Assembly: GCA_035583445.1 (NCBI GenBank)
Contig: DATEYD010000039.1
Coordinates: 1-59,678 of the forward strand
Direction of reading: 5' to 3'
Origin: Minisyncoccota bacterium
GTDB lineage: Bacteria > Patescibacteriota > Minisyncoccia > 2-02-FULL-40-12 > GWA2-44-9
Length of the DNA stretch: 59,678 nucleotides
The notes beneath the pieces are model-generated. The model saw only the letters and a program-made list of their open reading frames with translations. It was not told the origin of the DNA and made no database searches. This document shows, piece by piece, positions 41,311 through 53,971 of this stretch; positions within the stretch are counted from its first letter, which is position 1; each line of letters begins with the position of its first letter. Position numbers and translations under genes: made by a program.

Positions 41311-41871
41311 ATGGCCCAGCACGACGTCCCGTTCATCTCCCAATACGCGGATATCGGCTCCCACGAGTGGCGAGCTCGGGGGTGCGGCATTGCCGCGCTG
41401 AAGATGGTCATAGACTATTGGGCGGGATCACGCCCGTCGCTGCGGGTGCCTCCTTTGGACGAATTACTCCAAGAGGGATTGGCGCAGGGGGCGTATCGCG
41501 AGGGCATCGGATGGACCCATCGCGGGTTGGTTGCCGTTGCGCAGCGCCACGGGTTCGACGGATTCAATGTCGATTTCGCAGAACAAGGGCAGACGCCGAA
41601 ATCCGCAGATGATGCATTCGCTGCGTTGTGCGTGCAGGTGGAGCGCGGACCAGTTCTGGTGAGCGTCCATTCCGGCATGGATCCCAATCGCGGCGGGGGC
41701 CATATCGTGGTGGTTACCGGCATCCATGACGGCATCGTTTTCTACAACGATCCCGAGCAATTGGAACAACGCGAAGGGCGGATGGCGCTTGCAGCGGCCT
41801 TGTTCACGCACGCGTTCAAGCGCCGCTACATCGTCATAGTCCCGGCGGGTTCGGAATCGCCCCGCCCGTAG
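41311..41871 (+). CDS. papain-like cysteine peptidase, C39-like
   Basis: The ATG at 41311 is 6 nt after the tRNA-Ala 3' end. PFISQY...WRARGCGIAALKMV and GGGHIVVVTGI provide a Cys/His pair in a peptidase_C39_2-like pattern. Confidence 0.65.
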   Translation: MAQHDVPFISQYADIGSHEWRARGCGIAALKMVIDYWAGSRPSLRVPPLDELLQEGLAQGAYREGIGWTHRGLVAVAQRHGFDGFNVDFAEQGQTPKSADDAFAALCVQVERGPVLVSVHSGMDPNRGGGHIVVVTGIHDGIVFYNDPEQLEQREGRMALAAALFTHAFKRRYIVIVPAGSESPRP

Positions 41872-43501
41872 GCTCGGTCGGTGTCGTCGGTTGCGCCGGA
41901 GGGGGCGTCTTTTTCTTTCGGAGCATGAGCATGCCGATGGTGCCGAACACCAGGACCCCTACTCCTCCGAGGATATAGGGTGCGAGTGCGATAGCACGCT
42001 CCATGAGGGACACGGTGCGCTGGTGCACAATGACAGGTGCGGCGACCTTCTGATACAGCCCATCCTCATTTGAATATACGATGACCGTGTATTCTCCGTC
42101 GCCCAAAGGACCGGTGTAGGTGCTGGTGCCGGTGACGGTGATCGAGCGGACGAGACTACCATTGGCATCGAAAATATCGACACGATAGCCGTTCGCGGGT
42201 GGGCCGCCTTCCGGCTCGTCCCAGGTAAGTTCTGCGCCACCGTCGCCTTCGTCCGGCGTCTCATCGACGACGATTGTCGGTGTGGGGGTCGGGGATGCGG
42301 GCGGAGGGGTGGGGGTCGGGGATGCGGGCGGAGGGGTCGGCGTAGCAGCTCGGAAATCGACGGTCGCGATCCCCGTGTTCCCAGCGATATCGTGGGTCGT
42401 GATGCGGGCACGGTATGCCTCTCCCGCCTCAAGTCCCTCGACGGAGATCGCATGCTCAAGCTCGAAGGTGGCATCGTCATCACCGCCTGCGTTGATGAGG
42501 TAGGGCAGACTTTGCACGACCACGAACCCGTTCGTAGCCTCGTTGGTCGTCCAGGCGATCGTGACGCCGGTGGCGGTAATGACCGCGGCACGAGCATTGG
42601 TGATGACTGGGGGCTGTGTGTCGGGCGTGGGGGTAGGCGTCGCCGAGGTCGTCGGCGAGACAGTCACAAACAGGGTCGGCGTCGGGGTCGCAGTGACGCC
42701 GGCGCCCAGCGCGATGAATGTTCCAGCGGCCGTCGTTTCATTGCCCCATACATCACGTACCGTCAATGTATAATCGTAGCTTGTGCCGGGATTTACCGCG
42801 AACGATACCGAGCATGCCGTGACTCCGGGAATGCACGAGGCATATTCGCCGCTATAAGGGATGGTGGTGGCACCAACAACGACCTTGCCGTCGACCGGCT
42901 CGTTCGCACTGAATAAGATCGAAACCTGGCCAAGGGTCTCCTGTACGACCTGGACATTACTCAACTGCGGCGGCGATCCCTCCGTGGTCTCGTGGAGACC
43001 GAACAAAAATCCATACGCCTGATCTTCTCCGTCGATACGCGCAGTACCGTAGCTGTAGATCGCCTCAGGAGGCGCGTTATGAGGCAGGACACGGTTCGTT
43101 GTCGCGTAATACAATCGGAGCGTCGGCGATGCGGTGTCGATCCGCACGCGATACACGGCGCTTGCTGCGACCGGCAGCTGCGCCGGCCAGTCGAAATGGA
43201 ACCGAGTCCCCGTTTCCGAGTCGGCGATCGAGGGGACGGTGACCGTACGCGAGGTGATGGTAGAGCCTGCCGCGTTCAACAGGGCGAACGTCACCGAGCT
43301 TGCGGTGCTGGCATCACTGACCCAGAAGTCCATGCCGCTGAAGTATTCATTGGCAGGGACGAACACCTGTTCGACGCTGCCCAACGAGGCGACCAGGAGC
43401 GATTGCGCGTGGTCGGGGTGGAACTCGAGGTAGAGCGCGGCAGAGGCAACCGAAATGAGACCGAACAGCAACACCAGGATGACAAGAGAACGAAGAAGCA
43501 T
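41834..43501 (-). CDS. surface protein with FN3-like domains, PT linkers and a C-terminal TM anchor
   Basis: ORF 41834..43828. A signal peptide, MLLRSLVILVLLFGLISVASA, starts at the ATG at 43501, and a terminator lies upstream of that position. GVTIAWTTNEATNG...YRARITTHDIAGN is FN3-like. The 3' end overlaps the convergent C39 gene by 38 nt. Confidence 0.75.
   Translation of the reverse strand: MLLRSLVILVLLFGLISVASAALYLEFHPDHAQSLLVASLGSVEQVFVPANEYFSGMDFWVSDASTASSVTFALLNAAGSTITSRTVTVPSIADSETGTRFHFDWPAQLPVAASAVYRVRIDTASPTLRLYYATTNRVLPHNAPPEAIYSYGTARIDGEDQAYGFLFGLHETTEGSPPQLSNVQVVQETLGQVSILFSANEPVDGKVVVGATTIPYSGEYASCIPGVTACSVSFAVNPGTSYDYTLTVRDVWGNETTAAGTFIALGAGVTATPTPTLFVTVSPTTSATPTPTPDTQPPVITNARAAVITATGVTIAWTTNEATNGFVVVQSLPYLINAGGDDDATFELEHAISVEGLEAGEAYRARITTHDIAGNTGIATVDFRAATPTPPPASPTPTPPPASPTPTPTIVVDETPDEGDGGAELTWDEPEGGPPANGYRVDIFDANGSLVRSITVTGTSTYTGPLGDGEYTVIVYSNEDGLYQKVAAPVIVHQRTVSLMERAIALAPYILGGVGVLVFGTIGMLMLRKKKTPPPAQPTTPTEPTGGAIPNPPGL
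42284..42337 (-). repeat. perfect 27-nt tandem duplication (2 copies) encoding TPPPASPTP
   Basis: gggggtcggggatgcgggcggaggggt occurs at 42284-42310 and again at 42311-42337. Confidence 0.9.
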
Positions 43502-43559: not shown

Positions 43560-44015
43560 TTATCGGACGACGTTGATGACCTCATTAAGCTCCGCGTACG
43601 GAGCGCTGATGGTAATGCGGCCGTCCGAGTTGCGGACGAACGTATACCCGGTCGAAGCAAGATCCGCGCCATCCGTGGGGTCAACGACCATCGTCGAGAC
43701 GTACGTCGGGACGATGCAGGATGCAAGGTCGAAACCACCCGAGCCAATGACGACCGTCGTGTCCGTCGCAGGTAACACGGGGCAGTCTGCCGGGGTCCCG
43801 GCGCGCCAGCTGCCGCGGCCATCAGCAAGGCGCTGGCCGACCGCGTTCAGGATCGTGTTGATGTTGCTCCAGCGCTGCGTGTTGCGTGCCTGGGCGAACT
43901 GCCGGCCCGGGTTCAACGCGACGATGACGACTGCTGCCAAAATGGCGATGATACCGATAACGACGAGGATTTCAATAAGCGTGAAACCCTTCTGCTTTTG
44001 CCAGATTCCCTTCAT
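43560..44015 (-). CDS. type IV pilin / pseudopilin (probable major pilin)
   Basis: MKGIWQKQKG|FTLIEILVVIGIIAILAAVV is a class III signal with Phe+1 and Glu+5. Confidence 0.9.
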   Translation of the reverse strand: MKGIWQKQKGFTLIEILVVIGIIAILAAVVIVALNPGRQFAQARNTQRWSNINTILNAVGQRLADGRGSWRAGTPADCPVLPATDTTVVIGSGGFDLASCIVPTYVSTMVVDPTDGADLASTGYTFVRNSDGRITISAPYAELNEVINVVR

Positions 44016-44145: not shown

Positions 44146-45603
44146 TCACTGTTTCTCGTTCCACAGGATCGGGGTGTAGTAATCGGCGGTGAGCGGGAAG
44201 CTCGGTGGCGGACCGTAGAGCAGGTTCGCATCGTAGATGATGACGCGGTCCTCGTAGCCGGTGTCATCGGTATAGGCGAATCCGTACCGTTGGAATGAGC
44301 CGATCATCCCGTAGCTCGTGATGGAGTCGCGTTCATGGTAGGGGTCGCACCGATCGGAGGTCCACGATGGCGGACGGTAATAGTACCGACCGACGCGTCC
44401 GTTCTGGGCCATCAACGCCGCGTCGATGCGCAGATCCGTGTCAGACGTCATACCGATGTTGATGTTCTCTTGGGCGACCAACGAGAGGACGTCACTGCCG
44501 TCGTAGTTCGTGTAGGTCAGATCGTCAGTGACGCTGATGCTGCGCCAGGTGGTCGGGTTGTCAGGGAACTCTCCTGCAACAACGCTGATACGCGCGCTGT
44601 CGATCTGGCCGCGGACCCATACGTCATCTTCCAGGAAAATAAGGCCGTTGCTCGGGAACGGGTAGGTGCCGATGGTTGATCGGGTGCCTACCGACCATGT
44701 ACCCCATTTCGATTGGCTCAGATAGTTGGTGCATCCCGACGGCGGGGCAATGGTGGCGGTCACCAGATTGAGCGTGAAGGTATCGTTGGTGTTGAGCACC
44801 ACTTCGTATCCCGGATAGCTGGTCGAGGCTCGGTAGAAACCGTTGGCAATCGCATCCGTCCGCATATCGGCCAGAGCCTGGGTGATGCCGATGAAGTCGG
44901 CAGTGGGGACGCCGATCTGCCGTCCCGCGACGAACACGTCCGGACGGGCTGGCGGCGGAGGCGGCGGGCTCGGGGAGCACGTCACGGTCGGATCGGTCGG
45001 GGCAACATGCGTGTGAACGCCATACTCGGTAGCGCCATCGTGGTCGGGATCGTCGTAGCACTGTAGGGAGCTCGTTACCTGGTTGTACGCGATGCCATCC
45101 ATGCGAATACCGGCATTGGAGTGGATCGGTCCGTACAGCACCGTCCCCTCGCCGAAACGCACATTGTTGCCAATGACCGCGGCGTACTTCGCGAACGACG
45201 GGATCGCCATCGTTGCCTCGATGATCTTGCTGATGGCCGGGTTGGCGAGCGTGGTACCGGTCGATTCGATGTCCACGACGGTCGAGCCGGTGGGCGGTGG
45301 CACGATATCCAGCGTGAAGCTGCCGAGCGGATTCCCGTCCTTGTCGTTGAAGGTATGGACGTACGGACCGTCATCGTCCGCGCCGTCCTTGTAATCCTGG
45401 GGTGCGTGCGCTAGGTGCCACCGATAATATTCGATGCCCGCTTCCGCGATCATGAAGGACTGCGCAGCGTCCACATCGCGGAAGACCGCATTGAGATTGA
45501 AATCCGCCCACACGACGAACCCGGACATCACGATAACCGCGACCGTCCCGAAAATCAGGACGTAGAGGGAAATCTGACCCGGTGAGGTTGAGTGGATGTT
45601 CAT
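44146..45603 (-). CDS. pilus-associated protein (PilX-like N-terminal anchor, large extracellular domain)
   Basis: 485 aa with an N-terminal TM segment and no G|F..E motif. It is coupled by ATGA overlap to the upstream pilin-like gene. Confidence 0.6.
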   Translation of the reverse strand: MNIHSTSPGQISLYVLIFGTVAVIVMSGFVVWADFNLNAVFRDVDAAQSFMIAEAGIEYYRWHLAHAPQDYKDGADDDGPYVHTFNDKDGNPLGSFTLDIVPPPTGSTVVDIESTGTTLANPAISKIIEATMAIPSFAKYAAVIGNNVRFGEGTVLYGPIHSNAGIRMDGIAYNQVTSSLQCYDDPDHDGATEYGVHTHVAPTDPTVTCSPSPPPPPPARPDVFVAGRQIGVPTADFIGITQALADMRTDAIANGFYRASTSYPGYEVVLNTNDTFTLNLVTATIAPPSGCTNYLSQSKWGTWSVGTRSTIGTYPFPSNGLIFLEDDVWVRGQIDSARISVVAGEFPDNPTTWRSISVTDDLTYTNYDGSDVLSLVAQENINIGMTSDTDLRIDAALMAQNGRVGRYYYRPPSWTSDRCDPYHERDSITSYGMIGSFQRYGFAYTDDTGYEDRVIIYDANLLYGPPPSFPLTADYYTPILWNEKQ

Positions 45604-46196
45604 ATTTCTCCGCGAAGATTTCGGATCGTGATATAGATGGACAGCGTTGCGGGCAAGGGCGGCTGGAGCGGGTCGATATCGGTCGTGCCCGATACACCGA
45701 TCATCCGGATCGTGTTGAGGTCGATCGGGAACGCGAGCGAACCGGTGTCGGGCGGATACCCTTCGGGATAGTAGGAGAACACGGGACCCGGTACCAAGAA
45801 ACGGGCGGCGTCGATGACGATCTCGTTCGCCGGCGGATAGGCTGCCGGCTCATCATCCGTGGGTTCGATGACGCCTTTTTTCAATGTGGTCCCGTCCAGG
45901 AAGTAGCGGATCTGCTCGAAGATCCCGTCATTGTCCGTGTCGGCGAAGAATGCGAACTCCGTGTCCGTGGCAATGGCGATCGGATACGCACCGTTTTCTC
46001 CGGGACCCATGGATCGCACCTCGGTGAGCATGGTGCGCAGGGTCAGGGCAAGATCGCGCTCACCTTCCAGGCGCGCGTTCAGATCGGTGCCGAATTCGGC
46101 GACGTCCAAGCTGAATGTGGTCACGATCGCGATGACGCCGGTCGCAATGGCCATGGCGATCAGTAGTTCCAGGAGCGTGATGCCGCGCGTCGTCAT
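45600..46196 (-). CDS. minor pilin-like protein
   Basis: MTTRG|ITLLELLIAMAIATG is a prepilin-type N-terminus. The ATG at 46196 is in an ATGA overlap with the upstream stop. Confidence 0.75.
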   Translation of the reverse strand: MTTRGITLLELLIAMAIATGVIAIVTTFSLDVAEFGTDLNARLEGERDLALTLRTMLTEVRSMGPGENGAYPIAIATDTEFAFFADTDNDGIFEQIRYFLDGTTLKKGVIEPTDDEPAAYPPANEIVIDAARFLVPGPVFSYYPEGYPPDTGSLAFPIDLNTIRMIGVSGTTDIDPLQPPLPATLSIYITIRNLRGEI

Positions 46197-47932
46197 GGCG
46201 ATTGCAGGGTTACCTCGATCCGTTGCCAGGCCTCGAGCAGATCGATCTCGCCACTGAAATCGGCAAATCCGGGTTTGGTGACCGTCAGCGTGTATGAGGT
46301 GTTCTGGAGTTCCGTGAAGTATGCCTGCCCAGGAACCAGACAATTGGATGAAAAATTGATTGTCACGTCATCCACGGAAGGCGTAGCGTCCGGATCGGTC
46401 GTTTCGAGGGTTGCTCGATAGCGGAGATATCGGTTATTGGCCACGACTACGGGAAGTCCCTGTCCCAGAGCGGTGAAGTATGTCGCTGCGGTGCCATCCG
46501 GGCCGACATAGTTCCACGTTGCAAGGTCGTTGTTGGCGGCGATCTGGAACCGGACATCGGTGCCCGACAGTTCAGTTGCGGTCCAATCCAGGGTTTGAGG
46601 GGTCGTTCCCGCCGTTCCCAGATCAATCGTACGTGACTCCAGCCACTGGCTGGCGCTGGCATACTGACCGTCGACGCTGGCGATGGTGATAGACCCGCCG
46701 ATCTCCACATCCTCGGAACGGTCGGTGAACGATCCCTCGCTCCAGACGGTATCGGTCACCGACCATTGGCCGGTGGTGCGGGTTCGGCCATAGGCACCGC
46801 CCGCGATGCGGACCGTCGCGCCATCCACGGGCGTACCATCGGCGGCAGCGACCGCGATGGTCGCGACCGTCGGCGAACGTGATGCGACAAGCCAGGTCAT
46901 CTCGTGGGTCGTGTCAGGATCCACGATCATACTGAGGTTCGTCGCGGTGCCCGCGATCGCCATGAGCGTATCGGTCGCTTCGAGCGTGTAGGTGTCCCAC
47001 GCGAGCTGGTCCAGGATGAGCTGGCCTGAAGCGCCGATGGTATGTGACTGGGCATACTGCGGCACATCGGGTTCTGTCGCGATGACGCGGACCCCGGTCA
47101 TAAGAAAGTCCAATGACGCCGGAGCGGCGCAAAAAGGATCTCGGACATTGACGGTCAGCTCCGATACGAGGTCGATGCGCAACGAGCTGATCGTCAGCGC
47201 CTGGGTGGCGACGGTCGCATCGGGCTGCGTCGTGTTCGGCGGGTTCCCGGGCGGGTACGTCTGATCGGACGAATACCCCGGTTTGCTGACCTCGATGTGA
47301 TACGCAGCCGATCCGGTTGCGATATCGACGAGCTGAAGCTCGCCGTTCAGGTTTGTGCTGTCCGTCAGGTTGATCGCAGCGGCCGGGTTGGTTACATGCA
47401 CGGTCGCACCTGCGACCGGCTCGCCCGAGGCGTCGAGCACACGGACGAAAAGGTTGCCGTTCTTGGTCGAACTCTCGAGGTTCTTTGGGGCCACATAGGT
47501 GGACATGCGGATGAGGTCGTATCGCGGGCAGACATCGCAGATGATCTGGAATTCGACGAGCTTGTAATCCGCTGGCGCCGTGTCGTTCGGTTCGCTGCCC
47601 AGGACGCCATCGAACGGGTCGTCAATGTTGCGGACGAACGTGTGCAGCTCGTAGGGGATTTCGTCGACCACGATATCCTGGACCTGCGGCAGGAGACCGG
47701 TCGGAACGCCTCCCTCGGTGCCGACATCCTCGTATCGCATGTTCCGGACGAGCTCGATCTGGCTTTCGATGATGGAAAGGGCGGAGGAGTTGTACTGGGA
47801 CGATTGGATGATGTCCAATACGCTCCGATATCCGACGAAGATGCCGGTGGAGATGATCGCAAAAACCGCGAGGCCGATCAGGGTCTCGATGAGCGTGAAC
47901 CCCCGTGATGTGCGAAGTCCCTCCTGGTGCAT
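46193..47932 (-). CDS. giant pilin-like protein (~580 aa) with a CarboxypepD_reg-like insert
   Basis: MHQEGLRTSRG|FTLIETLIGLAVF is the prepilin-type N-terminus. LFVRVLDASGEPVAGATVHVTNP...YHIEVSKPGY is the insert. The ORF track start at 47938 is a TTG. Confidence 0.8.
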   Translation of the reverse strand: MHQEGLRTSRGFTLIETLIGLAVFAIISTGIFVGYRSVLDIIQSSQYNSSALSIIESQIELVRNMRYEDVGTEGGVPTGLLPQVQDIVVDEIPYELHTFVRNIDDPFDGVLGSEPNDTAPADYKLVEFQIICDVCPRYDLIRMSTYVAPKNLESSTKNGNLFVRVLDASGEPVAGATVHVTNPAAAINLTDSTNLNGELQLVDIATGSAAYHIEVSKPGYSSDQTYPPGNPPNTTQPDATVATQALTISSLRIDLVSELTVNVRDPFCAAPASLDFLMTGVRVIATEPDVPQYAQSHTIGASGQLILDQLAWDTYTLEATDTLMAIAGTATNLSMIVDPDTTHEMTWLVASRSPTVATIAVAAADGTPVDGATVRIAGGAYGRTRTTGQWSVTDTVWSEGSFTDRSEDVEIGGSITIASVDGQYASASQWLESRTIDLGTAGTTPQTLDWTATELSGTDVRFQIAANNDLATWNYVGPDGTAATYFTALGQGLPVVVANNRYLRYRATLETTDPDATPSVDDVTINFSSNCLVPGQAYFTELQNTSYTLTVTKPGFADFSGEIDLLEAWQRIEVTLQSP

Positions 47933-47934
47933 GA

Positions 47935-49008
47935 TCAACGGCCGAGCGTCTGTGAGATGGAATAGATTGGCGTGATGATGGAGATGGCGACGAACACGAC
48001 GACCCCACCCATGATCAACAGCATCGCTGGCTCGAGGATATTACTGAAGTTCTTGGTCGCGCCATCGAGCTCTCCTTCGTAGAAGTCCGCGAGGAAGATG
48101 AGCGTTTCGTCCAATTTGCCGGTGTTCTCGCCGACGGCCGCCATCTGGGAGAACGTCGCCGGGAAGAGTTTGGGGTTGGCGATCATGGACCGGCTCATCG
48201 GCTCACCGCCCTGGACCGCCTTCGAGATCTCGAGGATTTCCTGCCGATAGACGCGATTGGCTAACGTCGCGCTCGTAATCTCGAGCGCCTGGACGATCTT
48301 CACGCCGCCGCGCAGCAGCAGGTTCATGGTACGGGCGATGGTGACCACATTGACGTATGTCGACATACGGCCAACGAACGGAAGGCCTAAGATGAACCGA
48401 TGCCAGCGCATCCGGATCGGGGGATTCTGGATGGCGACAAAGAAAAGGATGACGAGCGCGATTAACCCGAAAAACACCCATACCCCGTACGCGAACATGA
48501 ACTCGGAAAGCGCGATGAAGATCCGAGTGGTCAGGGGGAGGGTGACGTTCAGCGACGTCAGGACCGGGAGGATCTTCGGAAAGATGAAGAATGACATAAT
48601 ACCTGTCACACCCACCGTCGCGAACAGAATGACGATAGGGTAGGCCATCGCGCCCCGGATCTTCTTATTCAGCTCGTTCTTTTTCTCCAGCTCGATCGCG
48701 AGGTATTTGAAGTTCTCCGAGAGCGTGCCGGACGTCTCGCCGACGCGGACGAGGTTGATGAAGAAGTCGCCGAACAGACGTCCGAACTTCTCCATCGCGA
48801 CGGACAAGTAGTGGCCGTTGCGCACGTCCGCGATCAGGCTGTCGAGCACCTTGACGAACGGCTTTGACGTCGTCTGTTTCTTGAGGACCTCGAGCGCCTC
48901 CAGTACCTGCATCCCCGAACGCGTCATCATCTCCATGTGGCGCGCAAAGAGCATGCGGTCGCGCAGGGACAGTCGGAAGAATAGGGTGTTGAGATTCGTC
49001 TTACTCAT
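47935..49008 (-). CDS. pilC: type IV pilus / T2SS platform protein (GspF/PilC family)
   Basis: GspF-type repeats and TM helices (RGAMAYPIVILFATVGV, ILEPAMLLIMGGVV). The first ATG is at 49008; the ORF track start at 49017 is a GTG. Confidence 0.9.
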   Translation of the reverse strand: MSKTNLNTLFFRLSLRDRMLFARHMEMMTRSGMQVLEALEVLKKQTTSKPFVKVLDSLIADVRNGHYLSVAMEKFGRLFGDFFINLVRVGETSGTLSENFKYLAIELEKKNELNKKIRGAMAYPIVILFATVGVTGIMSFFIFPKILPVLTSLNVTLPLTTRIFIALSEFMFAYGVWVFFGLIALVILFFVAIQNPPIRMRWHRFILGLPFVGRMSTYVNVVTIARTMNLLLRGGVKIVQALEITSATLANRVYRQEILEISKAVQGGEPMSRSMIANPKLFPATFSQMAAVGENTGKLDETLIFLADFYEGELDGATKNFSNILEPAMLLIMGGVVVFVAISIITPIYSISQTLGR

Positions 49009-50719
49009 GGATGACACGCAGCACTTCCTCGATGGTCGTCTTACCCTCGACTGCCTTCAGGAATCCGTCCTCCAGCAGGGTGGTCATCCCGTTCTTCACG
49101 GCGATGCGCTTCACCTCGCCGGCATCAGCACGGCGCATGATGGCCTCGCGGATGAAGTCGCTCATCTCCAGGATCTCGTAGATGCCCAATCGGCCGAAGT
49201 ACCCGGTATGGTTACAGACGTCGCACCCCTTTCCCACGAAAAATTCACGGTGGTTCCCGAGCAGGGCTTCGGGAACGCTCTCCTTGAGCGCGGCGAACTC
49301 GGCATCCGTGATGCGTCGCGGCGTTTTACAGTGGGGACAGATGGTGCGGACCAAACGTTGGCCGATGGCGACATTCACGGTCGAGGCGACCAGGAACGGC
49401 TCCACCCCCATATCCAGCAATCGGGGCAACGTCGTTGCCGCATCGTTCGTGTGCAGCGTTGCCAAGAGCTTGTGACCGGTCAGTGCAGCGTTGACTGCGA
49501 TGGATGCGGTCTCCTCATCGCGGATCTCACCGACCATGATGATGTTCGGATCCTGCCGGAGGATCGAGCGCAACCCGGCGGCGAAGGTAAGCCCGGTTCG
49601 GGTGTTCACCTGGATCTGGTCCACGCCGTCCAACGAATACTCGATCGGGTCCTCCAGGGTGATGATCTGGACCTCGCGGGTGTTGAGCTCCTTGAGGATG
49701 GTGTAGAGCGTCGTGGTCTTTCCGGACCCGGTCGGCCCGGTCGCCAGGATCATCCCATACGGCGTTTGGACCGCGTGGCGGATCTTCGCCCGATTGTCGT
49801 CGGTGAATGCCAGATCCTCGAGCGAGTTGATCGATGTCTGTTCCGCCAAGAGCCGCAGGACGGCGTTCTCTCCGTAGTACGTGGGGACGATGCTGACACG
49901 GACATCGAAGAGCGTCTCGGGCTTCACGATACGCATACGGAACCGCCCGTCCTGGGCCGCCTGGTGTTCGTCGGTGCGCATGCCGCCAAGCACCTTGATG
50001 CGGGCGATGATGCCCGGCTGTAAGGCTTTGGCGAACGAGAATACGTCATTGAGAATGCCGTCGACGCGCATGCGCGCGAGAAAGCTCTCCTCGAATGGCT
50101 CGAGGTGGATGTCCGATGCGCGTGCCAAGAACGCGTACGTCATCATGTCGTCGACGAGCGAGATGATGGAAATATCCGCTTCCGAGCGCTTGAGCGTTTC
50201 CTCGAGTCGAGTGCGGGTCTCGATGGCAAGCTGCGCCCGTTCGGGCCCGGAGATTCCCAGCGGCTTCGCCGCCGCCGGCCCGGCCTCAGCATTCTTGCTA
50301 GAGACCTTCTGCTTCGGTACTGCCCGTGGGGCGGGCACAGGCGCACCGCCTACCATCGCCGCCGTCGTCGAGATGATCGTCTCTGCTCCGGCGTCCCGCT
50401 TGATTAGGTACGACGTCGCGCCCAACTCTGTCGCCTTCTTGATGTCGTCGGCGTTGTTCGTGGCGAAGAGCACCAGGATGGGCGCCTTCGCGTCCTCTTC
50501 GCGCATGTCCTTCAGGATGGCCCAGCCATCGGGCTTGCCGACAACCGGTAAGTCCAGAATCACCACATCCGGCGCGTTTGCCTTGAACTGCTTCACGCCG
50601 TCTGCACCGTTCTCCGCGTGAATGACCGCGAACCCTTGATGAGTAAGCTTCTCTGACAGCACTTGAGCGACGAAGAAGTTGTCCTCGACGATCAAAACCT
50701 GTTTGTTTCCCTTAGCCAT
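49001..50719 (-). CDS. pilB: receiver (REC) domain fused to a PilB/GspE-type assembly ATPase
   Basis: The N-terminus VLIVEDNFF...VVILDL...LVLFAT...YLIKR carries all receiver signature positions. The C-terminal part has the Walker A motif GPTGSGKTTT, an Asp box and a tetracysteine CPHC...CDVC. Confidence 0.9.
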   Translation of the reverse strand: MAKGNKQVLIVEDNFFVAQVLSEKLTHQGFAVIHAENGADGVKQFKANAPDVVILDLPVVGKPDGWAILKDMREEDAKAPILVLFATNNADDIKKATELGATSYLIKRDAGAETIISTTAAMVGGAPVPAPRAVPKQKVSSKNAEAGPAAAKPLGISGPERAQLAIETRTRLEETLKRSEADISIISLVDDMMTYAFLARASDIHLEPFEESFLARMRVDGILNDVFSFAKALQPGIIARIKVLGGMRTDEHQAAQDGRFRMRIVKPETLFDVRVSIVPTYYGENAVLRLLAEQTSINSLEDLAFTDDNRAKIRHAVQTPYGMILATGPTGSGKTTTLYTILKELNTREVQIITLEDPIEYSLDGVDQIQVNTRTGLTFAAGLRSILRQDPNIIMVGEIRDEETASIAVNAALTGHKLLATLHTNDAATTLPRLLDMGVEPFLVASTVNVAIGQRLVRTICPHCKTPRRITDAEFAALKESVPEALLGNHREFFVGKGCDVCNHTGYFGRLGIYEILEMSDFIREAIMRRADAGEVKRIAVKNGMTTLLEDGFLKAVEGKTTIEEVLRVIHE

Positions 50720-51110
50720 GGGCGAGTTCTTGAATGCGGGCGATGATGTCGGAAAGACTGGACGTCTTTTTCATGAAGTCGACTGCGCCGAGCTCCTGCG
50801 CGATGTTCTTGTCGATCCACGCGTGGTCCACGTCTTCCTCGCCGAATGCACTCAGGAAGAGGATGGGGATGCCCTTGAGCTCAGGATCGCCCTTCAATGC
50901 AACGACCGCCTCCGTGCCGGACATCACGGGCATGCGGACGTCCATCACGATCAATGCCGGCGCATGATGCTGAGCTGCGGCGATCGCTTCCTTGCCGTTC
51001 CCAGCGATAGCGACGTCGAAGCCAACAGCCTCCAGCTTCATGCGGAGGATGTCGCGCAGTTTCTCATCGTCATCAACAATCAACACCAGTGGCTTCGAAG
51101 CGTCAGCCAT
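50712..51110 (-). CDS. stand-alone CheY-like response regulator
   Basis: 132 aa. LIVDDDEKL, LIVMDVRMP, LFLSAFG and DFMKK motifs. Confidence 0.9.
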   Translation of the reverse strand: MADASKPLVLIVDDDEKLRDILRMKLEAVGFDVAIAGNGKEAIAAAQHHAPALIVMDVRMPVMSGTEAVVALKGDPELKGIPILFLSAFGEEDVDHAWIDKNIAQELGAVDFMKKTSSLSDIIARIQELAHG

Positions 51111-51128
51111 ATGTACCAGTATACCACG

Positions 51129-52724
51129 CTAGCGGACTGAGCTGATGCGCACGAAGAATGTGCTGCCCTTGTTCGTTCCCGGTGAAGTCGCCCAGATGTC
51201 CCCATGGTGTGCTTGGACGATCTGCTTTGCGATATACAGGCCCAATCCCGAGCCTATGTACGCGTGCTCGGTCGACGGATCGCGGACGTATTGCATGAAG
51301 ATCCGGGGAAGAACCGCAGGGGGGATTCCGCGTCCGGTGTCCGCGACGGAGATCAGGATATTCGTCCCTTCATTACCGATACGAACATGGACGGTGCCTT
51401 GATCGGTATACTTGCATGCGTTGTCGATGATGTTTTGGATCACTTGGCGGAATTTCACCGGGTCGACCCGGGCCCACGGCCGCGTGGCATCGATGACCAG
51501 GTCGAGGCGCACCTGTTTCTGCTGGGCGGTGGGGGTGAGCTCGCGTATGACGTCCCCGGTCAGCTGCACGATATTCGTGCGCTTGAAGTCGTACTTCACC
51601 TTACCCTCCTCAAGTCGGCGCAGGTCCAAGAAATCGTCTACCAGCCGCACCAACTGATCAGCCGAAAGCTCGATGTCGTGCGCGGTCTTGATGGCAGTTG
51701 CCGGGAGCTTCCCGAGGGATCCGTCAGTGAATAACTGCGCTTGCCATTTAATCGCGGCCAGGGGCGCCTTGATCTGGTGGGAGGCGAAGGATAGGAATTG
51801 CGACTTCATACGCCCCAATTCCTGCAGCCGTGCATTGGCCTCCTGCAGCGACTCCGTCATTTTATGCATGTGTTCGTTCTGCTGGATCTCGTTTTTGACG
51901 CTTCGGATGAGAAAGGTGCCGAATCCGGTTGCCAGAACGATGCCGAGGACGTTCATTGCCCGCAAGAACGGGTCGTTCGTGAAAATCGCTTGTGAGAACA
52001 GGGCGGCGACCAGGGCGATGGTGAAGAGCTCGGCCCCGATGACCCGGATGCGCATAAAATGGTTGCGCACGATGGCCAGGGCGATGAACGAGACCATGAT
52101 GATCGTAGAGAGCGGTCCCAGGCCGATATATTTCGCGTTCCCCAGCTGCACGAGGATGATATTCAGGGCGCTGCCGATGACGGCCGTCGCGAACGTCCCC
52201 ATGAACACCATCATCAGCGCCCCACGCTCGTTCCGGTCGGTGCTGGCGCGATAGCGCTGGTAGAGGCGGCCGAACGACGCCGCCATCAATGCCGCGAAGT
52301 AGAAGATGAAGTAGAGGTGCTGTGGGCCGAGGATGATGTATCGATTGCCGTTGCCGGCATCGATGACCCTGCGGATGAAATCGGGAGAGCCGAAGGCGAG
52401 GGCAATGATCGCTAGTGCGCCGCCGATCACAATCGTGTGGTGGTAGGTCGGGAGCGTGCGTCCGGTGAAGAACAGCACGAAATACCAGAAGGTCACCGCG
52501 ATCGCGGTCCCGCTCGCATACGCGAACGCAAGCGCAAGCCGCATGTGTTCCGGGTCGACAAATAAACGCAATGCAAGGATCGAGGCGATCCAGGAGATCA
52601 CCGATCCGATGAACACGACGTACGCGACATGGGTCCGCTGCTTCGGACTGTCGAGGTAGATAACGAAACCCAGAGCGCCGCAAAAGAAGCCAACAACCGC
52701 AAGCGCGCCAGAAAGCATGTCCAT
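51129..52724 (-). CDS. sensor histidine kinase with a multi-pass (about 7 TM) N-terminal domain
   Basis: H-box FLSFASHQIKAPL, N-box QVIQNIIDNACKY, and G-boxes DTGRGIPP and GSGLGLYIAKQIV. Confidence 0.9.
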   Translation of the reverse strand: MDMLSGALAVVGFFCGALGFVIYLDSPKQRTHVAYVVFIGSVISWIASILALRLFVDPEHMRLALAFAYASGTAIAVTFWYFVLFFTGRTLPTYHHTIVIGGALAIIALAFGSPDFIRRVIDAGNGNRYIILGPQHLYFIFYFAALMAASFGRLYQRYRASTDRNERGALMMVFMGTFATAVIGSALNIILVQLGNAKYIGLGPLSTIIMVSFIALAIVRNHFMRIRVIGAELFTIALVAALFSQAIFTNDPFLRAMNVLGIVLATGFGTFLIRSVKNEIQQNEHMHKMTESLQEANARLQELGRMKSQFLSFASHQIKAPLAAIKWQAQLFTDGSLGKLPATAIKTAHDIELSADQLVRLVDDFLDLRRLEEGKVKYDFKRTNIVQLTGDVIRELTPTAQQKQVRLDLVIDATRPWARVDPVKFRQVIQNIIDNACKYTDQGTVHVRIGNEGTNILISVADTGRGIPPAVLPRIFMQYVRDPSTEHAYIGSGLGLYIAKQIVQAHHGDIWATSPGTNKGSTFFVRISSVR

Positions 52725-52741: not shown

Positions 52742-52777
52742 GCCCCGCATCCCCATGATACCACGAGGGGGCGGGGC
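52742..52777 (-). terminator. terminator hairpin after the KAS III gene; its loop carries TGGTATCAT (extended -10, 52755-52763) for the kinase operon
   Basis: GCCCCGC CCCC...GGGG..GCGGGGC followed by TTTTTCTT on the minus strand. Confidence 0.5.
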
Positions 52778-52784
52778 GAGCGCG

Positions 52785-53873
52785 TCAGGGGACGCGCACA
52801 ACGGCGGTGCCGTACTGCCAGCCGGCGCCGATGGCGGCGAGGAGCACGAGATCACCGGAGCGGATCCGGCCCTGCTGCTTGGCCTCGGTATACGCGACCG
52901 GCACGGTCGCGGTGTCCAGGTTGCCGTAGCGCTCGACGTGCACCTCGACGCGGTCGATCGGGATGCCGTTTTCGGTGGTGATACGCTCGAGCAGGCGGTG
53001 GTTCACCTGGTGGATGATGAACCGGTCGAACTCGGTCATCGTCAGCCCGGTCGCGGCCTGCATCTCCTGAAGGATCCTCCGGAAGAGGTGTGACGCTTCG
53101 CGGGCGATGAGCCGGGTATCCATGTTGAACCGGTGCAGGTATGCGCTGACCGTCGCATGGGTCGCCGGGTACAGGGAGCCGCCCCCGAGGTACTCGATGG
53201 GGTTGTTCGTGGGCGCCACGCCGACCGAAGAGCGCAGGATGCCAGCGCCCGGGCGATCGGATGCTTCGACCACGAATGCCGCGGCGCCTTCGCCGAAGAT
53301 GTAGATGCCCGCCCGTTCCCGGGACAGGTATCCTTCGCGTTCGGGACTGGGCATCCCTTCGTAGGCGGTGATGTAGGACCCCGGAGAAACCGAGCCGACG
53401 ACCAGCAGGCGCTTGCGCTTGCCCGCGCGGATGTCGGAATCAGCCAGGTCAAGCGCGAACAGGAACCCTCCGCACCCGACCGCGGTCAGGCCGACCGCGG
53501 ACGAAAACGTCTCCTCTTCCTTCTCCCGCATGCCCAGTCTGGCGTGCAGGGTGCACGCGGGATCAGGCAGCAACTGGCGGGGAGTCGTCGTCGCCCAGTA
53601 CACGCGGTCGATGTCCGATGCGGCGACGCCGGCATCGTCCAGCGCCATGCGAGCGGCGGCGACGCTCTGGGTCAGGTCGTAGTCGGGCAGCCCCGTGCGG
53701 GCCGTGAAGTCGAACGACGACGTCCGCGTGATGATGCCCAGCTTGGAGTACACCCAGTCGGGCGTCCACCGCGGTTCGTCCGTAGGCTTCGGCAGGTACC
53801 GGTAGATCTCCTCGTTGGTGGCGCGGACCGGCGGCAGGCTCATGCCACAGCCGGTGATGACGGGTATTGGCAT
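52785..53873 (-). CDS. beta-ketoacyl-ACP synthase III family protein (FabH-like)
   Basis: The start is MPIPVITG at 53873, with AAGGGGG upstream. The candidate catalytic triad is Cys (VGCGGFLFAL), His (IIHQVN) and Asn (YGNLDTATVP). Confidence 0.85.
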   Translation of the reverse strand: MPIPVITGCGMSLPPVRATNEEIYRYLPKPTDEPRWTPDWVYSKLGIITRTSSFDFTARTGLPDYDLTQSVAAARMALDDAGVAASDIDRVYWATTTPRQLLPDPACTLHARLGMREKEEETFSSAVGLTAVGCGGFLFALDLADSDIRAGKRKRLLVVGSVSPGSYITAYEGMPSPEREGYLSRERAGIYIFGEGAAAFVVEASDRPGAGILRSSVGVAPTNNPIEYLGGGSLYPATHATVSAYLHRFNMDTRLIAREASHLFRRILQEMQAATGLTMTEFDRFIIHQVNHRLLERITTENGIPIDRVEVHVERYGNLDTATVPVAYTEAKQQGRIRSGDLVLLAAIGAGWQYGTAVVRVP

Positions 53874-53971
53874 GCGGCAACCCCCTTTTTCGATGGAATG
53901 ACCTGTGCCGAGGATACCAGAATGGGGTCCCGGCGGGTATCCCAAGACGCGTGTTGCTTTTTATGTCCGGA

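Follow-up and report, generated by a model that had tools for sequence, protein, structure and literature searches.

Control of PilB, the extension ATPase of type IV pili, is known to take place through cyclic di-GMP (c-di-GMP) acting on the MshEN domain, or through the partners PilZ/FimX, PilG/PilH, SgmX and DrdR. Here we describe an operon of a Minisyncoccota bacterium in which a PilB-class ATPase carries a response-regulator receiver domain (REC) at its N-terminus, and is preceded by a sensor histidine kinase and a free receiver. We call this ATPase REC-PilB. The operon lies on contig DATEYD010000039.1 (assembly GCA_035583445.1), which was analysed over its whole length of 59,678 nucleotides (nt), referred to below as the window, and all of its genes are on the minus strand. 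The receiver-fused PilB with its kinase and free receiver is a real, conserved and uncharacterised system; its parts all belong to known families, and the fusion occurs widely in metagenomes. Receiver fusions are absent from a 2024 review on the cofactors of PilB (PMC11656802), and a literature search for a described REC-PilB fusion found no paper.

Several described systems resemble this arrangement in part. The MshEN-bearing PilB, PilF, MshE and GspE proteins (Geobacter PilB, structures 5TSG and 5TSH; Thermus PilF) share with REC-PilB the N2 domain and C-terminal core, the tetracysteine motif, the adjoining PilC and pilin genes, and a regulatory N-terminal domain held on a flexible linker. 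Unlike them, REC-PilB would receive a phosphoryl group or a receiver contact as input, rather than c-di-GMP or PilM/GspL docking, and no PilMNO genes are found in its cluster. DrdR of Xanthomonas, a receiver-only protein, stimulates the ATPase activity of PilB and PilT, to both of which it binds (PMC13507683). In DrdR, as in Pseudomonas PilG/PilH and, according to a preprint, the PATAN-REC proteins of Synechocystis (bioRxiv 10.1101/2021.06.11.447907), a CheY-like receiver without DNA-binding output controls the pilus motor post-translationally. By analogy, the free receiver of our operon could act in the same way. In contrast to those systems, one receiver is here covalently bound to the motor, the kinase is a membrane HisKA protein instead of a CheA-type array, and the system is known from sequence.

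In NtrC, NtrC1 and DctD a receiver is tethered to a ring ATPase, and phosphorylation controls hexamer assembly either positively or negatively. These proteins would be the nearest mechanistic analogy for a receiver that gates PilB, although they are AAA+ ATPases, unrelated to the PilB-type secretion ATPases, and REC-PilB has no sigma-54 or DNA-binding function. Fusions of the same two families also occur as MshEN-N2-CTD-REC, where CTD is the C-terminal domain (for example in Chloroflexota), and as REC-MshEN-N2-CTD; these differ in domain order, keep MshEN and have independent origins. The closest ATPase cores, at 56-64% identity, are those of the short PilBs (410-450 residues, ComGA-like minimal ATPases) of sister Patescibacteria. 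Their operons contain PilC, a 581-residue pilin, a pilin of about 200 residues, a 485-residue protein and the major pilin in the same order as ours, and unlike ours they lack both a receiver and neighbouring two-component genes. Within the fused clade, two short forms reach 73-77% identity, one being a secondary REC loss and the other cut by a contig end.

Results

REC-PilB (572 residues, positions 49001-50719) matches Pfam Response_reg (PF00072) at residues 8-108 (E 1.4e-18, 67.5 bits against a cut-off of 30.2) and T2SSE at residues 181-568. The MshEN/T2SSE_N domain (N1, PF05157) was not found in it by Pfam, and was found in a paralogue on another contig of the same genome (C116) and in unfused relatives. 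The claim of an earlier note on this DNA, that a receiver replaces the usual N-terminal domain of the ATPase, is thus borne out. In an AlphaFold2 model built with 119 homologues, the receiver (residues 7-124, positions 50348-50701) has the full (beta-alpha)5 fold, with five strands and five helices at a predicted local distance difference test (pLDDT) score of about 88-91. Its Glu12, Asp13, Asp56 and Lys107 correspond to Asp12, Asp13, Asp57 and Lys109 of CheY, and it also has Tyr104. In the alignment of the 119 homologues, Asp56 and Lys107 are invariant, and so are Glu12 and Asp13 wherever the N-terminus is present.

The position of the switch residue Thr87 of CheY is occupied by Phe85, because the spacing from Pro80 to Lys107 equals that from Pro82 to Lys109 in CheY; the register between these residues is ungapped, and three PDB alignments independently give the same result. 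In the model beta4 ends with Phe85, whose column holds Phe in 106 and Leu in 11 of the 119 homologues. The earlier note had described a complete receiver, and this description stands for the acidic pair ED, the acceptor Asp and the Lys, all of them conserved. It does not stand for the Thr that it had read in LVLFAT: this residue, Thr87 of REC-PilB, aligns with Glu89 of CheY in a column that is Leu in 71 of 119 homologues, and the switch position belongs to Phe85. A sister subgroup from another family of the same order (loci L095-L098, L105 and L106) has Ser at position 85, so the Phe is a derived state. In another member of the fused family, P0123/P0271 (Candidatus Yanofskybacteria, OGN28768.1), the N-terminal domain falls below Pfam Response_reg at E 1e-5, which hints at receiver decay in some lineages.

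A linker (residues 125-180, positions 50180-50347) joins the receiver to the ATPase. It consists of a disordered stretch rich in Pro, Ala and Lys at residues 129-155, where pLDDT falls to about 30, followed by a helix at 158-177, and its mean pairwise identity among orthologues is 22%. The core itself (N2 and C-terminal domain, residues 181-572, positions 49001-50179) matches T2SSE (PF00437) with E 9e-120 and has the Walker A motif GPTGSGKTT, the Walker B-like IIMVGEIRD, a GH...HTNDA box and the CxxC...CxxC tetracysteine. It belongs to the PilB/GspE extension class, with E values of 1e-98 to 1e-104 against PilB, PilF and GspE structures in the PDB versus about 1e-28 against PilT. The best solved relative is Geobacter PilB 5TSG (E 1.7e-104); a Foldseek structure search recovered only PilB cores, the best being 5TSH at 44% identity. 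The equivalog cut-offs of NCBIfam were not reached for either GspE (TIGR02533, 506.6 against 630.25 bits) or PilB (TIGR02538, 465.1 against 675.65 bits). The idea that a receiver is structurally required in the place of MshEN was rejected, as the nearest relatives work without any N-terminal domain.

Upstream of REC-PilB lie the genes for the free receiver, a single-domain response regulator of 132 residues (50712-51110), and for the sensor histidine kinase of 531 residues (51129-52724). The kinase has the Pfam domains HisKA_7TM (residues 8-226), HisKA (306-374) and HATPase_c (421-527). From motifs and hydropathy, it has a multi-pass membrane region at its N-terminus, an H-box SHQIK with the His at 315, and N, G1 and G2 boxes. 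With a HisKA-class kinase that bears an H-box, a cognate receiver encoded nearby and a conserved adjacency, the pair has the marks of a classical two-component system. It is not a system of the Pil-Chp or Frz type, which uses a CheA-type kinase with CheW and a methyl-accepting chemotaxis protein: the kinase class is HisKA, and the single kinase-type HATPase_c of the genus-mate G461 is this same kinase. The free receiver (Response_reg, E 1.9e-21, 76.8 bits) is fully canonical in an alignment of 17 orthologues, with a DD pair, the Asp in VMDVRMP, the Ser in LFLSAF and the Lys in FMKK, and it carries a 6-residue insert in the alpha4 region.

A minus-strand operon led by a multi-pass sensor kinase, then a lone receiver and a PilB/GspE ATPase, with PilC and the pilins after it, had been proposed in the earlier note, and Pfam confirms these genes and their order (T2SSF and then prepilin-type genes follow the ATPase). 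Overlaps of 4-8 nt throughout had also been claimed. They are present between the free receiver and REC-PilB (8 nt) and, as ATGA, between PilC and the first pilin and between pilin genes (4 nt); the kinase stop and the start of the free receiver are separated by an 18-nt gap without overlap, and PilB and PilC overlap by 17 nt from a GTG start, or by 8 nt from the next ATG.

The genome of the window, G000, comprises 1.37 Mb in 331 contigs, and its genus-mates have 0.5-0.8 Mb, that is, about half. It also holds extra PilB fragments (contigs C19 and C257) and extra receiver and kinase matches on small contigs, and it may be a mixed bin or contain two strains; the GC content of all its contigs, 0.55-0.65, does not separate foreign ones. 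Because of this, genus-mates were used for the whole-genome statements. In the genus-mate G461 (3 contigs, 97% complete) this operon accounts for the single HisKA kinase and both receivers of the genome. These receivers are the free one and the PilB-fused one, and a DNA-binding response regulator was not found among them. One other HATPase_c protein of G461, with about 720 residues, is taken from its size alone to be gyrase B.

The fusion is conserved in related bacteria. More than 120 clusters at 58-77% identity have the REC plus T2SSE architecture, and the named ones are all labelled as Patescibacteria, Paceibacterota, Yanofskybacteria or Minisyncoccia. A search of contigs for relatives returned at least one fused orthologue among the 80 loci listed; prevalence was taken from whole-genome searches of 400 genomes across the phylum and 105 genomes of the own order. 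Full-length matches were present in 26 of these 105 genomes (the window's included), among them 10 of the 11 other genomes of the genus, and in three of the four families. Across the phylum, where about 375 of the 400 genomes belong to other orders, none of the matches listed covered the receiver; the best other matches were short PilBs of 412-458 residues, which align only from about residue 140-185 to 572. A REC-linker-N2 query was also run against 1.84 billion representatives at 50% identity, and the best 150 were classified by script. These included 3 full-length proteins of the window's type, 4 REC-MshEN-PilB, 33 with a C-terminal REC and 4 other REC arrangements. From these domain orders, receiver-PilB fusions as a class are common and polyphyletic, and the window's type is a narrow family. 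Other unusual PilBs were seen as well. A Chloroflexota metagenome-assembled genome (JAMCWD010000022.1, locus L073:5130-8933) encodes a 1267-residue PilB with two MshEN domains, T2SSE, many zinc ribbons and a C-terminal receiver, next to a tandem 1025-residue PilB of the same make-up without a receiver (L073:9083-12160); P0128 and P0145, of about 1000 residues, have two complete T2SSE cores in tandem, and P0128 also MshEN.

Synteny was compared among 21 loci with the fusion. The order REC-PilB, PilC, 581-residue pilin, pilin of about 200 residues, 485-residue protein, pilin and fn3 protein is kept wherever the contig allows. The free receiver is directly upstream of REC-PilB in 17 of the 21, often overlapping it, and the seven-transmembrane (7TM) kinase is found within the fetched flanks in 14, in some of them adjacent and in others with CBS or other genes in between. 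Short PilBs that have neither an N-terminal domain nor two-component genes (L015, L016, L017 and L021) are also accompanied by this pilin block. In a third, split context (L032, L041, L053 and L084, by phmmer), a kinase, a REC, an MshEN-PilB, PilC and the same minor pilins are separate genes; MshEN was confirmed by Pfam in L032 and L053. At L026 the order is REC, REC, PilB. Since split loci are found in other Patescibacteria, two-component control of this pilus type would be older and wider than the fusion itself, and the unfused gene arrangements lend support to a putative functional link between receiver and PilB. As a separate observation, a short kinase of about 310-330 residues without 7TM and a free receiver precede PilB and the minor-pilin block in L032, L041, L045, L053 and L084.

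The history of the fusion was examined in a tree of the ATPase core, rooted on PilBs from outside Patescibacteria and built by a quick search with support from the Shimodaira-Hasegawa-like approximate likelihood ratio test (SH-aLRT). Fused and short forms make up one clade (support 99), in which the short forms are basal and the fused ones nested (91). The sister group (98) consists of five PilBs, three of them with MshEN by Pfam and a free REC directly upstream. The best reading is that MshEN/N1 was lost first and REC was then gained once, by a short PilB without N-terminal domain. Within the fused clade, L091 has lost its receiver secondarily, and the short form of L105 is a tandem duplicate. 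L091 (7324-8814, genome G462) encodes the closest ATPase orthologue, at 77% identity, with a pilin gene divergent upstream, and no receiver query matched its 90-residue N-terminus. At L105 (6360-12570, genome G487) a kinase, a REC and REC-PilB are followed by a second, short PilB of 504 residues and PilC, so that one copy of the duplicated motor has no receiver. A tree of the receivers separates them into a clade of fused ones (98) and a clade of free ones from fused loci (96), which branch internally in a similar way. The possibility that the two kinds of receiver are recent duplicates was rejected in view of these separate, well-supported clades, and they are best read as old, distinct partners.

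Downstream of REC-PilB, the PilC/GspF-type platform protein (360 residues, 47935-49017) has two T2SSF repeats (E 4.2e-55) and is classified as GspF/PilC by NCBIfam. It is followed by a large prepilin-type protein of 581 residues (46193-47938; cleavage motif G|FTLIE) with the Pfam domains N_methyl and CarboxypepD_reg, which adjoins PilC in fused, short-PilB and MshEN-PilB loci alike. Then come a small prepilin-like protein of about 198 residues (45600-46196; G|ITLLE), with a weak N_methyl match and an ATG at 46196 chosen from orthologue lengths, and a conserved protein of 485 residues (44146-45603) with an N-terminal hydrophobic anchor, which has orthologues at E 1e-140 to 1e-247 and matched no Pfam family. 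A pilin of 151 residues (43560-44015; KG|FTLIE, N_methyl E 4.3e-10, NCBIfam prepilin domain) is likely the major pilin. The cluster ends with a surface protein of about 555 residues (41834-43501, start at 43501), made of a signal peptide, an fn3-like region, a Pro/Thr-rich linker and a C-terminal membrane anchor, and orthologues of it exist in most complete fused loci.

Neither PilM, PilN or PilO nor the PilQ secretin was found in the window's cluster or in 20 orthologous clusters. The operon is thus a minimal, lineage-specific type IV filament operon composed of ATPase, platform and pilins, with no PilMNO or secretin. The absence of pilT, pilD and pilMNO from the window, reported in the earlier note, was confirmed, and the genome search proposed for the first two located both on other contigs of G000: PilT, together with a PilC, on C104, and PilD on C301. 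Contig C116 encodes a PilB with MshEN by Pfam followed by PilC, and two upstream open reading frames that, by position only, may be PilN/O-like; a third PilB-class ATPase is on C41. Each of five genus-mates (0.6-0.8 Mb) has three PilB-class ATPases and one PilD, and four of the five have one PilT-class ATPase. As the genome and its genus-mates carry three PilB-class ATPases, REC-PilB is one of three extension motors, and it probably shares PilD with the others.

We also looked for transcription signals. An extended -10-like box, GTGGTATACT (51118-51127, minus strand), lies in the 18 nt that separate the kinase from the free receiver, 7 nt ahead of the ATG of the latter; it was first spotted by eye and then tested. 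A second box, GTGGTATCAT (52755-52764, minus strand), is found 31 nt ahead of the kinase ATG, within a terminator-like hairpin with a T-run after a FabH-like gene. The pattern GTGGTAT(A/C)(C/A)T has only these 2 matches in the window, against 0.25 expected. A TGTGGTATACT box stands 7-9 nt before the REC ATG in loci L008 and L102 of the same genus, and boxes resembling it are found ahead of REC-PilB at L011 and L101, two loci without the kinase. A scan for consensus promoters and terminators gave nothing above the shuffled expectation. These observations suggest that GTGGTATACT is a candidate promoter for a near-leaderless REC-pilB mRNA, the kinase having a separate one. The FabH-like gene, a putative 3-ketoacyl-acyl carrier protein synthase III (KAS III; 52785-53945, minus strand), stands alone upstream of the kinase and is followed by the GC-rich hairpin with the T-run.

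Discussion

With moderate confidence, we favour the view that this two-component system, the only one of the cell in genus-mates, tunes the REC-PilB pilus motor post-translationally, as an accessory and not as an on-switch. Because this two-component system lacks a DNA-binding output, post-translational control of the pilus motor is its most likely effect. In the mechanism that we propose, the 7TM kinase would phosphorylate the free receiver and may also phosphorylate Asp56 of the fused one, and the phosphorylated state, or a contact between the two receivers, would alter hexamer assembly or ATPase activity of REC-PilB. The two-component system would then be an accessory that tunes the motor, and would more probably brake or bias it than be required to switch it on, with unphosphorylated REC-PilB as the presumed active default state. 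In this sense, the unphosphorylated motor must work, since REC-PilB stays intact in relatives that have neither the kinase nor the free receiver; and as four of these relatives are near-complete genomes, kinase-driven phosphorylation is not an obligatory on-switch.

Phosphorylation-dependent control at the level of the ATPase itself, as put forward in the earlier note, is backed by the fusion of REC to a PilB-class ATPase and by the conserved acceptor Asp, acidic pair and Lys; Phe85 and the four kinase-less relatives speak against it. Together with some further observations, the latter two also weigh against the view that we favour. The Thr/Ser that is conserved at the end of beta4 is absent from the fused receiver in the window's subgroup, and in part of the sister subgroup (L097, L098, L105 and L106) Ser or Lys occupies the second acidic position. 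With a mean pairwise identity of 38%, against 69-75% for the ATPase, the receiver evolves at about double the rate. In the genomes G453, G457, G445 and G412 (92-100% complete), no kinase orthologue, HisKA, kinase-type HATPase_c or free receiver was found, and the only receiver is that of REC-PilB, which retains Glu12, Asp13, Asp56, Phe85 and Lys107. As the acceptor site is kept in these relatives, the fused receiver has a function without this kinase. The box between the kinase and the free receiver may mean that the kinase is transcribed separately, and whole-genome counts for G000 itself are unreliable.

The four kinase-less genomes sit in different parts of the tree, so the kinase and the free receiver were lost at least three times independently, and because they are lost together they look like a cognate pair. 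Acetyl phosphate was considered as the phosphoryl donor in the kinase-less genomes and rejected, given that acetate kinase was found in none of the five genomes (G461 and the four kinase-less ones), Pta not having been searched for.

A possible alternative, though on balance a rather unlikely one, is that the fused receiver works independently of phosphorylation, as a pseudo-receiver used by the motor for docking or assembly. The kinase would then phosphorylate the free receiver only, and this would bind in trans either to the fused receiver, as a REC-REC heterodimer, or to the ATPase. The replacement of the Thr switch residue by Phe would agree with this idea, and so would the loss of the second acidic residue in part of the sister subgroup, the fact that kinase and free receiver always disappear together while the fused receiver stays, and the lack of acetate kinase in the kinase-less genomes (a search that did not include Pta). 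Receivers that act in trans on PilB are also documented (PMC13507683; bioRxiv 10.1101/2021.06.11.447907). However, Asp56 and Lys107 are invariant in all 119 homologues, and Glu12 and Asp13 are invariant in the window's subgroup, the kinase-less members included, when pseudo-receivers usually lose these residues; a pocket of this kind can nevertheless persist for metal binding or for structural reasons. In the opposite assignment the kinase really targets the fused receiver, and the free one is a phosphate sink that makes the signal shorter-lived, a role played by the second CheY of some chemotaxis systems. Two receivers for one kinase in the same operon, and the fully canonical active site of the free one, are compatible with it. 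We regard it as quite improbable all the same. HisKA-class enzymes are usually bifunctional kinase/phosphatases, and with such a kinase in the place of CheA a sink is not obviously needed. Moreover, the free receiver equals the fused one in conservation and disappears together with the kinase, for which a cognate pair is a better fit, and lone REC genes also precede unfused MshEN-PilBs, loci in which a sink would lack a second receiver to drain.

A reading in which the two-component genes are mere neighbours of the pilus genes, with a regulatory target outside the pilus, was already disfavoured, and we find it very improbable. Unrelated genes do part the kinase from the operon in L009, L010, L093, L109 and L110, and the interval from the kinase to the free receiver contains a separate promoter-like box. 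Against this, the free receiver keeps its place beside REC-PilB, often overlapping it, in the 17 of 21 loci mentioned above; the only two receivers of G461 are these, with no output domain other than PilB; and the adjacency of kinase, REC and pilB recurs in other Patescibacteria lineages.

Coming back to accessory post-translational tuning of the motor, the properties of Phe85 deserve attention. The T87I mutant of CheY is phosphorylatable and signalling-dead, and its autodephosphorylation is about 5-fold slower (PMC3774744). By analogy, Phe85 would argue against the classical Thr-Tyr coupling and not against phosphorylation, and a phospho-signal at the fused receiver may be long-lived. A bolder proposal goes further: the only two-component system, devoid of transcriptional output, would gate the assembly of the PilB ring through the tethered receiver; the change from Thr to Phe would make this a long-lived or non-classical switch that pairs with the free receiver; and the whole would work as an off-state lock like that of NtrC1 or DctD, possibly reporting host contact sensed by the 7TM kinase. 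Taken as a whole, we think this proposal unlikely, a little more so than the docking role considered above.

A motor that has its own receiver, in a bacterium where one operon constitutes the whole two-component repertoire, would make an unusually simple system of one sensor, one or two receivers and one motor. The REC-PilB system could serve to study how phosphorylation may gate a hexameric ATPase of the secretion type, and the lineages that lack the kinase are natural controls for it. Furthermore, it could show what an ultrasmall episymbiont with a genome of about 0.7 Mb chooses to sense.

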